From an uncultured Candidatus Saccharimonas sp. (GTDB lineage Bacteria > Patescibacteriota > Saccharimonadia > Saccharimonadales > Saccharimonadaceae), in NCBI GenBank assembly GCA_963532115.1, contig CAUSJG010000002.1:12550-76549 (forward strand): 64,000 bases of DNA, given 5' to 3'. The notes beneath the pieces were generated by a model. The model had not been told where the DNA came from, did no database searches, and was given only the letters and a program-made list of their open reading frames with translations. Of the stretch, positions 35,106-38,018 are shown in pieces (positions within the stretch are counted from its first letter, which is position 1; each line of letters begins with the position of its first letter). A program made the position numbers and the translations under genes.

Positions 35106-35273
35106 ATGCACGCAAAAACAACAAAATTTAAAAAAATAATATTCTTTATGATTGTCGGACTGGTAGCTCTTGCTTGGTTTGGTTCAGAATATCGATGGCA
35201 AAAATATCGAAATTATGAAAAAGAACACAACTGTGAATGGCAAATGATCAATGAAATGGAGATTTGTAAATAA
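35106..35273 (+). CDS. small membrane protein (55 aa)
   Basis: Below the ORF-track cut-off. AAGGAGA RBS; MHAKTTKFKKIIFFMIVGLVALAWFG... The stop overlaps the RecT start (TAATG). Confidence 0.5.
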   Translation: MHAKTTKFKKIIFFMIVGLVALAWFGSEYRWQKYRNYEKEHNCEWQMINEMEICK

Positions 35274-35950
35274 TGTCAGAAGCAGAAAAAGATGCACGTA
35301 AAGTAGCGGTTCAAAAACGGCGAAAAACTTATGGCGAAATCGTTCCTTTTGCAGAAAATCTTTTTGAAGAAGGAATCTCACGTTCAGCAAAAGAACGAAT
35401 GCTTATTTCAGTTCATCGTTCAATTTTAGGCTTAGATAAACAAAAACAACTCCGCCCTCTTGATGATTTGAAACAGTTTATGATTATCGCTGGACAATTT
35501 GGCGTTAACCCATTTAAAAATGAAATTTACGCAACCTATGTTTGGAATTCAAGCACTGGACGCGAAGAACTTACGCCAATAGTTTCAATTCACGGACTGC
35601 GAAAATTAGCGCGCCGTGGTGGAATTTATTCACATACCGGAACTGCTGCAATTTCAAAAAACGCTGAAGGAAAACTCGAAAGTGTGACAGTGCCAGTTTT
35701 TGGTCTTATAAATGGTGAGATTCAAGAATTTACACGCTACACTGCCTTCTACGATGAATTTGTTCGCACTAATAAAAATGGCGAACCAATCTCTAACTGG
35801 GCAAAAATGCCAATCGTAATGCTTACTAAATGTGCTGAAGCAAATGCAATTCGCCAAGCGTTTGACATCTCTGGAATTTATATCGAAGAAGAAATTTCAC
35901 GCGAAGATGAGCAAATTATTAACCAAACTGAGGAGAAAATCAATGAATAG
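35273..35950 (+). CDS. recT: RecT-family single-strand annealing protein
   Basis: 225 aa; FGVNPFKNEIY..., IHGLRKLARR and MLTKCAEANAIRQAF are typical of phage RecT. Confidence 0.8.
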   Translation: MSEAEKDARKVAVQKRRKTYGEIVPFAENLFEEGISRSAKERMLISVHRSILGLDKQKQLRPLDDLKQFMIIAGQFGVNPFKNEIYATYVWNSSTGREELTPIVSIHGLRKLARRGGIYSHTGTAAISKNAEGKLESVTVPVFGLINGEIQEFTRYTAFYDEFVRTNKNGEPISNWAKMPIVMLTKCAEANAIRQAFDISGIYIEEEISREDEQIINQTEEKINE

Positions 35951-38018
35951 AGTTGATCACTTAAGCTATTCTGCTCTTGTAACCTTTCTACGAAATCAGG
36001 TTGAATTTCAAAAGCGTTACATTGCGAAGGTTTATGACAATCCTTCGAGCCCATCAATGGTAGTCGGTAAAGCTTTTCACAAAGCGCTTGAAATTTACTA
36101 CAAGGGCGGAACTTTTGACGAAGCTGCAGCTGCTGGGCTTGATGAAATAAATTCAACTAGCGATTACGAAATCGACTACGGAAAAACTGGCAGTCGTGAA
36201 AAAATGATTAAAGAATTTAACGATTCACTCAATATTTATTTTGAAGAAGCGCCAAAATTTGAAGTTCTTGATGCTGAAAAACGGCTCGAAGCTGAGATTT
36301 CGAAAGTTCCAATGGTTGGAATCATCGACCTAATCATTAAAGGCTCGAGTGAAGATAAAATTAAGCTTAAAGATTACAAAACAGTTTCGTTTTATTCTTC
36401 TGCTACTAACGATCCACTTGATCCGGAGTATCAAGAAAATTACAAATATTTGCTCCAAGGCTCAATTTATCTAGTTTTGGCCGAAAAGGTTCTTAAGAAA
36501 GAAATTGAAAGCGTTGGTTTTATCGAAATCAAGAAAACTAAAAATCGAGATGGTTCGCCACAAATTCGCGAGTTCGAATATTCTCGAAATGACTTGCTTG
36601 AGTTCTTGCCAACAACCGAAAAACTCATCACGAATGTGTTCGATTATGTGAATAATGACAACGCTAAATTCTTCCCTAACCCTAGTGATATCTTAAATGG
36701 ACAAGAATCAATGGAGGTTCTTGCGAATATCGAAACTGGATTTGATAAAGCTAAAATTAAGCGCAAGATGAACGTTGCGGAAAAATTCAGTGAGAAGAAT
36801 ACGACCGTTGATTTGCTCGAAACTGATGGCGAAACTAATGAGAATTTGATTATTAAAAAGTTCTTAGAGTTCGGAATCGGTGGCGCGATCGGTGAAACCT
36901 TCACTGGTGCAAGCATAATTCGTTACACTTTCCGCCCAAACCGTGGTGTTGCAATGAAGAATATCAGCTCACGCGCTGACGATCTTGCAATCGCTCTTCA
37001 AGCTAAATCAGTTCGGGTTCTTGCACCAATTTACGGCACAAACCTCATCGGTGTGGAAATTCCAAATCCTGAACGTAAAGTTCTAGATTTCGACGATTCT
37101 CTGCTTAAAAAAGGCACTTTCGAAATTCCGCTCGGCCAAGATATTTTTGGTGAAAATCATTATGGTGATTTAACTAAAATGCCACATCTATTAATTGCTG
37201 GGCAAACTGGCTCAGGTAAATCAGTAATGCTAAATGTAATTCTCGAATCGCTCACTAAACAACTTTCGACAGAAGAACTCCAACTCGTGCTAATCGATCC
37301 AAAGCAAGTTGAACTCGGATTTTATGAAGATAGTAAGCATTTATTAAAACCGATTGTCACTAATCCAATTCATGCACAAGAAACACTTGCAGATCTAGTG
37401 GAAGTAATGGAATCTCGCTATAAAACTTTGCGAAAAGCTGGTGTGAGAAAGATCGAAGACTACAAAGGCGAAATGCCGCGAATCGTTTGCGTAATTGATG
37501 AATTTGCCGACTTAATGATGACATCTGGTAATAAACGCGAAGAATTTAAATTGAATATTAAAGGTATGATCGAAACGATTCTGCATTTTAATAAAGATTT
37601 TGATTTATCAGAAGTAAAATCACTGGAAGATCTGAAAATTAACCCAAAAATGTCAGAGCTTGAAAAAGAAACGATTAAGGAACAGAAAAAAGCAATGAAA
37701 GATCTCGAAAAAGCAATCCTTGAAGCTTCAGATCTAGGGATACCAAGCGCAGAAAGTTCGATTATTCGAATCGCGCAAAAAGCTCGAGCAGTAGGAATTC
37801 ACTTGATTCTCGCAACCCAGCGACCTTCTGCTGATGTGGTAACAGGATTGATTAAAGCGAATATTCCAACCAAAATCGCATTTAGTGTAACTAACTCGCT
37901 AAACAGCAAGATTATTCTTGATGAAACTGGCGCAGAAATGCTTACCGGAAACGGCGATATGCTTTATCAAGACCCACGAGCTAATCATCTTGAACGACTA
38001 CAAGGATTCTATCTATGA
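35943..38018 (+). CDS. fusion protein: RecB/Cas4-like PD-(D/E)xK nuclease (N-terminal) + FtsK/SpoIIIE-type DNA translocase motor (C-terminal)
   Basis: Trimmed to ATG 35943 with a GAGGAG RBS. N-terminal half: SYSAL..., IIDLIIK...[12 protein letters not shown] (QxxxY). C-terminal half: [60 protein letters not shown]. Confidence 0.85.
   Translation: [691 protein letters not shown]

Follow-up and report, generated by a model that had tools for sequence, protein, structure and literature searches.

A RecB-family nuclease–FtsK fusion encoded beside RecT in an uncultured tailed prophage: a predicted phage recombination module

The DNA analysed here (the window) is a 64,000-nucleotide stretch, positions 12,550 to 76,549, of contig CAUSJG010000002.1 from the assembly of an uncultured Candidatus Saccharimonas sp. 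(GCA_963532115.1). It carries the prophage of a small-genome, probably oral, bacterium. In the early region of this prophage, a gene for a RecT/Redβ-superfamily single-strand annealing protein is followed by a gene for a 691-residue protein in which a predicted RecB-family nuclease is fused to an FtsK αβ motor. Judged from sequence and gene order, RecT and the fusion most likely make up a phage recombination module of two genes, akin to λ Exo/Beta or RecE/RecT. With a probability of about 0.55, we predict that the fusion is the exonuclease partner of RecT, and that a ring of its motor domains drives double-stranded DNA to the tethered nucleases. The features discussed are listed in Table 1.

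Gene pair and domain structure of the fusion

The 225-residue annealing protein matches Pfam RecT (E = 7.6e-18) and the RecT-like/Bet-like PHROG (E = 3e-22); against TIGR01913 (bet_lambda) it scores 75.8 bits, slightly below the cut-off of 76.95. An earlier reading of the letters alone, made without database searches (the sequence-only reading), had placed RecT at 35273–35950, overlapping a 691-residue open reading frame (ORF) by 8 nucleotides, and both the list of ORFs and the junction itself, read directly, bear this out. The fusion ORF can be read from a GTG at 35832 onwards, but the start that is conserved is an ATG at 35943, and homologues begin with the same MxxxDHLSYS N-terminus; the stop is a TGA at 38016–38018. 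A GAGGAG ribosome-binding site lies 7 nucleotides 5' of the ATG, and the TAG stop of the co-directional RecT gene overlaps the fusion start (35943–35950). The overlap and the ribosome-binding site together suggest that translation of the fusion is coupled to that of RecT. An alternative genetic code, in which UGA encodes an amino acid as in some candidate phyla, was rejected because TGA also serves as a stop in other host and phage genes; in the fusion it falls at the C-terminus of the homologues.

Three Pfam domains were identified in the fusion. Residues 6–234 match PDDEXK_1 (PF12705, E = 2.4e-15), residues 292–375 match FtsK_alpha (E = 1.5e-18), and FtsK_SpoIIIE matches with E = 1.4e-44; these E-values exclude chance. 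In the nuclease half, the motif IIDLI holds D129, LKDYKT holds D144 and K146, and QGSIY holds Q172. These four residues, together with H46 and E112, are invariant across an alignment of 35 fused sequences. In 11 stand-alone relatives Q172 is nearly invariant and the other residues of the RecB-type site are invariant. A further stretch at the C-terminal edge of the nuclease, LPNxxDxxxG (here in the form FFPNPSDxxxG; residues 243–258, 36669–36716), is invariant or nearly so in fused and stand-alone proteins, and is modelled with low confidence.

All structure predictions are of monomers. The model of residues 1–300 has a predicted local distance difference test score (pLDDT) of 84.5 and a predicted template modelling score (pTM) of 0.81. 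Its best structural matches in Foldseek are AddB (3u4q_B, E = 2.9e-7) and AdnA. The E. rectale putative exonuclease 3L0A is matched with a query-normalised TM-score (TMq) of 0.56, and RecE (3h4r) with a TMq of 0.49; Dna2, Cas4 SSO0001, MGME1, RecBCD chains, Exo5 and LHK-Exo are also found. The Foldseek probability is 1.00 for AddB, 3L0A, AdnA, Dna2, RecE and MGME1. The viral models matched are stand-alone proteins of 250–400 residues named “RecB family”, “Cas4 family” or “Exodeoxyribonuclease 8”. The relatives were revealed by fold comparison: a sequence search of the PDB with the nuclease half gave no match, and a word-indexed search with the N-terminal half gave 15 hits, mainly fragments. 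The sequence and the model together assign this half to the RecB-family PD-(D/E)xK nucleases; its nuclease activity and polarity are predictions.

There are no cysteines in residues 1–300, and the four-cysteine iron–sulphur (Fe–S) cluster of the Cas4/AddB type is absent. We therefore describe the nuclease as RecB/RecE-like, and reject a Cas4-type iron–sulphur nuclease. The sequence-only reading had seen “RecB/Cas4-type” motifs in the N-terminal ~300 residues: the motifs are real and conserved, and the RecB part of this description stands, while the Cas4 part does not. It had also considered that this half might lack similarity to a nuclease fold, which both Pfam and Foldseek find.

The motor half aligns to the αβ motor of P. 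aeruginosa FtsK (2IUU) with E = 3e-69, and the alignment runs to residue 688 of 691, in the last strand of the β domain. The full-length model matches 2iut_A in Foldseek with E = 7.8e-31, a target-normalised TM-score (TMt) of 0.73, a root-mean-square deviation of 2.7 Å and 36% identity; across FtsK motors the TMt is 0.73–0.77. Pfam FtsK_gamma has no match in the fusion, which stops at the last β-domain strand. The fusion also has no membrane anchor or segment, its N-terminus being the soluble nuclease domain. Pfam, the 2IUU alignment and Foldseek thus agree with the earlier description of the C-terminal ~390 residues as an FtsK αβ motor without γ, and Foldseek, proposed there for each half, recovers a RecB-family fold with the model of residues 1–300 and an FtsK motor fold with the full-length model.

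Functional residues were mapped from P. aeruginosa FtsK (PMC7321959) through the 2IUU alignment. The arginine finger R620 corresponds to R615 of the fusion, which is invariant in the 35 homologues, as are K426, D519 and E520. The residues of DNA loop II (R632, S634, G640 and K643) correspond to R627, S629, G635 and K638, which are invariant or nearly so.

In the full-length model, residues 264–295 have a pLDDT below 50. The overall pLDDT is 80, and the whole-chain pTM is 0.50, as against 0.81 for the nuclease alone. On these low values for the linker and the whole chain, the nuclease appears to be joined to the N-terminus of the α domain by a flexible tether. The linker differs in both sequence and length among homologues, and the reading frame is always intact.

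The motor also contains an insertion of ~69 residues (535–603), directly after Walker B and before the arginine-finger helix, which appears as a gap in the alignment to 2IUU. Two long helices (521–549 and 572–597) are modelled across the insertion and its flanks. The spacing from Walker B to the motif ATQRP is 28–29 residues in 66 cellular FtsK proteins and 32–104 (median 73) in 85 fusions. The insertion, which every fusion has in variable form, could be a point of contact between rings or with RecT. In one homologue (P0002; 93% identical, 663 residues), ~28 residues including the arginine-finger helix are gone (columns 660–690 of alignment A1); this reflects either decay of the copy, leaving its motor dead, or a fault in the assembly.

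Distribution, linkage to annealing proteins and origin

A word-indexed protein search with the fusion gave 2,109 hits. Nearly all of the best 120 cover 97–100% of the query, at 43–99% identity, with the same three Pfam domains. The cluster at 90% identity that contains the window fusion has 533 members. The same single ORF was found in 102 loci at ~30–99% identity, from independent metagenomes and metagenome-assembled genomes (MAGs). IMG/VR holds at least 80 full-length fusion loci on viral contigs, mostly of 32–40 kb, and a second scan with a five-sequence alignment added nine more divergent loci; a scan with P0144 as the lone query gave no matches. The fusion is present in two MAGs (98% identical; L001 and L003), where the contigs measure 187 and 371 kb, and in two more that bear the label Candidatus Saccharibacteria; one further contig has been binned as Atopobium, and contigs of 0.8–1.1 Mb contain still other members. 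None of the GenBank phage records covers 80% or more of the fusion, which leaves uncultured phages as the only known source of the family. Both active sites are kept in fusions that are only ~45% identical, and by this comparison of sequences are under purifying selection.

ORFs were called in all the fetched loci and searched with profiles built from the RecT genes found there, and representatives were checked using Pfam and PHROGs. An annealing-protein gene lies beside the fusion in 96 of the 97 informative loci (102 in total), which answers the survey of co-occurrence with RecT that the sequence-only reading had proposed. The other five loci have less than 100 nucleotides of upstream sequence; at the single informative exception (L152), no annealing-protein gene was found in the 635 nucleotides upstream. 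The RecT type found in the window (subfamily A) accounts for 70 of the 102 loci, and is mostly directly upstream, overlapping the fusion. In nine of these 70 (L006, L007 and L159–L165), RecT is directly downstream. This clade, 39–41% identical to the window fusion, includes two MAGs labelled Saccharibacteria (L006 and L007). In L007 the fusion (5980–7788) is followed by RecT at 7785–8468; all other clades place RecT first. A second RecT subfamily, B, occurs in 18 loci (Pfam RecT E = 2e-28 in L082), at distances from an overlap to ~1.4 kb upstream, and a RecT-like subfamily, C (phrog_561/4171), in eight, mostly overlapping upstream. By comparison, none of the 73 loci holding a motor-only cellular FtsK contains RecT. 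Since the linkage survives both a change of partner family and a change of gene order, it argues for the fusion and the annealing protein being a functional pair.

In one related phage (L081, fusion 57% identical) a WhiB-like gene lies downstream of the module, at 3666–3935, which is a hint to the host range of that clade.

The origin of the fusion was approached through an exhaustive, profile-free search with the nuclease half, which gave 272 clusters at 50% identity (E ≤ 0.001). Fused proteins (597–722 residues) and stand-alone nucleases (250–330 residues) are interleaved by rank among these clusters. The stand-alone proteins carry all the catalytic residues as well as the C-terminal LPNxxDxxxG, and most end within ~15 residues beyond it. 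We therefore conclude that the fusion consists of a whole exonuclease, a linker and an FtsK αβ motor. One stand-alone nuclease ORF is overlapped by the end of an ERF-family gene (L177; PHROG E = 1.6e-39), and another has a RecT gene ~1.3 kb upstream (L178); the contigs of three more (P0133–P0135) are too short for context.

In a neighbour-joining tree of motor domains, built from identity distances with midpoint rooting and leaving out motor-only phage FtsK proteins, the fusion motors (85 distinct sequences) group in a single clade, separate from 73 cellular FtsK proteins. This single clade and the longer spacing from Walker B to ATQRP therefore point to one capture of a cellular-type FtsK motor, after which the variable insertion would have arisen.

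The prophage around the module

To the left of 34830 the window holds cellular genes, including those for an M20 peptidase and a diacylglycerol-kinase-like protein, and two tRNAs. In this region a listed 529-residue ORF (30650–32239, minus strand) with a TTG start overlaps a tRNA-Leu on the opposite strand (32170–32257, plus); the true start is probably a downstream ATG. The gap of 440 bp between the diacylglycerol-kinase-like gene and the first phage gene contains a strong GC-rich hairpin at 34913–34950 (AGCCCCGTGG…CCACGGGGCT), followed by a T-rich stretch. This could be a terminator, or could lie at or near the junction between prophage and host.

Besides RecT and the fusion, the early operon (35106–43647, plus strand) encodes small proteins without known function, a protein that may be a nuclease or resolvase, and a kinase/phosphatase-like protein. 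The possible resolvase (39042–39500) has no Pfam hit and matches a Holliday-junction-resolvase PHROG over a short stretch (E = 1.3e-7); it may be a second nuclease of the recombination region. No replication initiator, helicase, primase or polymerase was recognised among the early genes using PHROGs and Pfam, and no other exonuclease was found in the operon. Barring the resolvase candidate, no gene in the visible part of the early region other than RecT and the fusion can be recognised as a DNA-transaction gene.

From 43816 to the end of the window, the minus strand carries endolysin, tail, tape-measure, head-morphogenesis and portal genes and the nuclease end of the terminase. The element is thus a tailed prophage with its own packaging machinery. 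Because it has a portal and a large-terminase nuclease domain, the fusion motor was rejected as the packaging ATPase, which upholds an earlier argument from the presence of a phage terminase. Any integrase or repressor would have to be encoded past the end of the window.

Table 1. Positions of the features in the window and the basis of each assignment
Feature	Position	Strand	Basis
RecT/Redβ-superfamily single-strand annealing protein, 225 residues	35273..35950	+	Pfam, PHROG, TIGR01913
Nuclease–FtsK fusion gene, 691 residues and TGA stop	35943..38018	+	ORF listing, Pfam, at least 120 full-length homologues
RecB-family PD-(D/E)xK nuclease domain (predicted), residues 1–~265	35943..36737	+	Pfam, model, Foldseek, stand-alone relatives
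H46 of the RecB-type site	36078-36080	+	Invariant in 35 fused sequences
Core catalytic motif, D129 (IIDLI) to D144-Y-K146 (KDYK)	36327..36380	+	Invariant in 35 fused sequences
Poorly conserved linker, predicted flexible, residues ~266–296	36738..36830	+	pLDDT, variable alignment columns
FtsK α domain, residues ~297–375	36831..37067	+	Pfam; aligned to 2IUU from residue 95
FtsK β (RecA-like ATPase) domain	37068..38018	+	Pfam, 2IUU alignment, Foldseek
Walker A GQTGSGKS, residues 420–427	37200..37223	+	Invariant or nearly so
Walker B D519-E520	37497-37502	+	Invariant or nearly so, 35 homologues
Family-specific insertion, residues ~535–603	37545..37751	+	Gap relative to 2IUU; modelled helices
Arginine finger R615	37785-37787	+	Mapped from P. 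aeruginosa FtsK R620
Early protein, 152 residues, possible nuclease or resolvase	39042-39500	+	phrog_824 (unknown function), E = 3.8e-12
Polynucleotide kinase/phosphatase-like protein, 160 residues, end of early operon	42759-43241	+	PHROG, E = 1.3e-22
Lysis protein, 554 residues	43816-45480	-	PHROG ‘membrane associated protein’ N-terminus, amidase/endolysin centre, hydrophobic C-terminal tail
Portal gene	61804-63267	-	PHROG portal, E = 6e-98
Large terminase, C-terminal nuclease part, cut by window end	63189..63992	-	Pfam Terminase-T7_RNaseH-like, E = 5.5e-08

Proposed function, alternatives and relation to known systems

We propose that a stand-alone RecB-family exonuclease gained a C-terminal FtsK αβ translocase for double-stranded DNA. 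Six fusion subunits would form an FtsK-type ring on double-stranded DNA, probably loading at an end, since there is no γ domain to read loading sequences. ATP hydrolysis would pull the DNA in at the ring's β face and out at its α face, where six nuclease domains, on linkers of ~30 residues, would cut it as it emerges. The single-stranded product would then be passed to RecT for annealing, whether for recombination or repair of the phage or for replication that depends on recombination. We infer that the subunits form a hexamer, that cutting depends on ATP and has a strand polarity, and that the protein cooperates with RecT.

Phage annealing proteins act with an adjacent 5'–3' exonuclease, and in RecBCD, AddAB and AdnAB the DNA coming out of the motor is cut by RecB-family nuclease domains. 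The fusion is adjacent to and co-oriented with its annealing gene, as in the λ Red and RecET modules, which are further characterised by 5'–3' exonuclease activity on double strands and by a specific contact between exonuclease and annealing protein. The FtsK αβ hexamer takes in duplex DNA at its β face and expels it at its α face (Jean et al. 2020, PMC7321959). With the nuclease on the α side, where FtsK-driven DNA exits, the notion of a nuclease fed by a pump would agree with this geometry.

Several points weigh against this proposal. Known partners of RecT and Redβ need no ATP, and the benefit of a motor is therefore obscure. If the ring left an end as fast as FtsK travels, a tethered exonuclease still bound at that end would be left behind. 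DNA loop I is conserved only in part: S652 and K656 stand in place of K657 and R661, and of the two only K656 is basic. Two stand-alone sister nucleases, both on short contigs (L166 and L167), have no annealing-protein gene there. Many of the fusion loci are near-identical phages, so that the independent observations of linkage amount to about half a dozen clades rather than ~100; the weight of that evidence comes from the persistence of the association over some six clades, three partner subfamilies and an inverted gene order. The chief difficulty is one of mechanism: FtsK translocates duplex DNA without unwinding it (PMC7321959), and strand-selective degradation, in which the 5' strand is removed and a 3' tail is left for RecT, is therefore unexplained.

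We consider it unlikely that the protein is instead a DNase for host takeover, in which a motor-driven nuclease shreds host or competing DNA, either to obtain nucleotides or to disable the host, and in which the adjacency to RecT is incidental or secondary. PHROG classes phage FtsK-like proteins under ‘host takeover’, and a polynucleotide-kinase/phosphatase-like gene (42759–43241) lies in the same operon. Some MAGs labelled Candidatus Saccharibacteria, and contigs of 0.8–1.1 Mb, contain relatives of the fusion; small-genome bacteria of the Saccharibacteria sort are not known to make nucleotides de novo, and salvage from host DNA would therefore be valuable. A fast double-strand pump ringed by six nucleases would be an efficient means of shredding DNA, comparable to the DUF4297-HerA double-strand nuclease complex (PMC11291478). 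Pure degradation, however, does not predict the near-universal linkage to annealing genes, with three RecT-like subfamilies and in two gene orders. The phages are moreover temperate, being integrated on contigs of 187–819 kb, and stand-alone sister nucleases are also found beside or near annealing-protein genes. Between recombination and degradation of host DNA, the synteny clearly favours recombination.

We give a lower probability to a role in processing recombination intermediates, in which branch migration, or the stripping of proteins from the duplex, would be the work of the FtsK ring, much as RuvB pumps DNA, and the nuclease would cleave flaps or junctions after annealing. This role would explain the linkage to annealing proteins equally well, and for a resolvase the early operon offers at best one weak candidate (39042–39500). 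The pumping of duplex without unwinding (PMC7321959) suits branch migration better than resection. Against this, the nuclease has the fold and motifs of end-processing enzymes of the RecB/RecE/AddB type rather than those of the Hjc/RecU resolvases, and its stand-alone sisters resemble ordinary exonuclease partners of annealing proteins.

It is highly improbable that the fusion is a prophage-borne nuclease for defence or superinfection exclusion, like DndH/SspH or the HerA–nuclease systems. PADLOC SspH models do match it (E = 1e-46), and DndH/SspH proteins likewise contain a restriction-endonuclease-fold domain followed by a HerA/FtsK ATPase, sometimes with FtsK α (PMC10853773); because such proteins have been described, a nuclease–ATPase fusion of this general sort is not unprecedented. 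The SspH match is nevertheless limited to the motor (residues 321–534). The fusion has 691 residues, whereas the PADLOC SspH profiles that match it have ~1,560–1,770, for proteins of about eight domains, and DndH averages ~1,700. DndH and SspH occur with DndF/G or SspF/G, whose like were not recognised nearby in general scans, no search having been aimed at them. In every clade, the fusion gene lies in a phage early operon, apparently translationally coupled to RecT, and its neighbours in the window are RecT and small phage genes. Membership of the DndH/SspH group was therefore rejected. As for the fusion being two genes joined by a sequencing or assembly frameshift, which the sequence-only reading had raised, this is effectively dismissed because the same uninterrupted ORF is conserved in 102 independent loci and recurs in the 533-member cluster, with the frame kept through a variable linker.

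Returning to the fusion as the exonuclease partner of RecT, we compared the module with known systems. It resembles the λ Exo/Beta, Rac RecE/RecT and SPP1 G34.1P/G35P pairs in that an annealing gene in the early region adjoins, and is probably coupled in translation to, a gene for a PD-(D/E)xK nuclease, and its nuclease fold resembles RecE (3h4r) and the λ-Exo-type LHK-Exo. Exonucleases of the λ Exo/RecE type are ATP-independent, however, and owe their processivity to a ring-shaped oligomer; the fusion instead bears a full FtsK αβ ATPase. RecBCD, AddAB and AdnAB share with it a RecB-family nuclease coupled to an ATP-driven motor at the point where DNA leaves. Their motors are superfamily 1 helicases, which unwind DNA and feed single strands, whereas that of the fusion is a double-strand pump of the FtsK clade, presumably hexameric, and the fusion has neither the Fe–S cluster nor the Chi-scanning domain.

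NurA is not known to be a PD-(D/E)xK nuclease. Archaeal resection by HerA-NurA, and the DUF4297-HerA and Sir2-HerA systems, also combine a hexameric ATPase of the FtsK–HerA superfamily with a nuclease on double-stranded DNA (PMC11291478), and the full-length fusion model has weak Foldseek matches to HerA chains. In those systems the components are separate subunits with a HerA-clade ATPase; here they are one polypeptide with an FtsK-clade motor, including α, that is linked to RecT. Only short stretches of the fusion, around the P-loop or the arginine finger, are matched by HerA models, and membership of HerA-NurA or HerA defence systems was rejected. Cellular FtsK/SpoIIIE and the phage ‘FtsK-like DNA translocase’ genes, as in cluster J mycobacteriophages and Bacillus phages, share the αβ motor, Walker motifs, arginine finger and loop II. 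Compared with cellular FtsK/SpoIIIE, the fusion lacks the N-terminal membrane domain with its long linker and the γ domain, which reads the KOPS/SRS sequences and activates XerD, and it carries an N-terminal nuclease and a variable insertion after Walker B. By likely mode of working, the closest systems would be RecE/λ Exo in role, AddAB/RecBCD in the logic of a motor with a trailing nuclease, and HerA-NurA in the combination of ring and nuclease.

A nuclease–FtsK fusion linked to RecT is not described in the literature searched; the 2004 comparative genomics of FtsK–HerA (PMC521647) may contain an earlier mention. The fusion suggests an ATP-driven phage recombination nuclease that is so far undescribed. 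We would go further only tentatively, at rather less than even odds: phages of small-genome oral bacteria may have a third mechanistic class of recombination end-processor, in which a single-polypeptide hexameric pump for double-stranded DNA, with six RecB-type nucleases tethered to it, works with RecT. If so, a two-component recombination that is otherwise ATP-independent becomes ATP-dependent, and the fusion might replace absent host end-processing enzymes or drive recombination-dependent phage replication.

Members of the family are publicly named “hypothetical protein”, “RecB family exonuclease” or “DNA segregation ATPase FtsK/SpoIIIE”; DAP28113.1 (NCBI nr), in the same 90% cluster as the window fusion, is “DNA TRANSLOCASE FTSK [Caudoviricetes sp.]”. 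The nuclease–FtsK architecture corrects the annotations “DNA translocase FtsK” and “hypothetical protein”. Saccharibacteria are hard to manipulate genetically, and the relatives in MAGs labelled Candidatus Saccharibacteria may offer a lead for genetic tools. The fusion is also a compact, single-gene system in which to study how a double-strand DNA pump hands over to a nuclease. Pairs of a phage annealing protein and an exonuclease are the basis of recombineering, and are the textbook case of ATP-independent recombination. Coupling of end processing to a ring or motor has so far been known from cellular RecBCD/AddAB and archaeal HerA-NurA; a widespread exonuclease–FtsK family would show that phages, too, couple a ring translocase to the processing of DNA ends.

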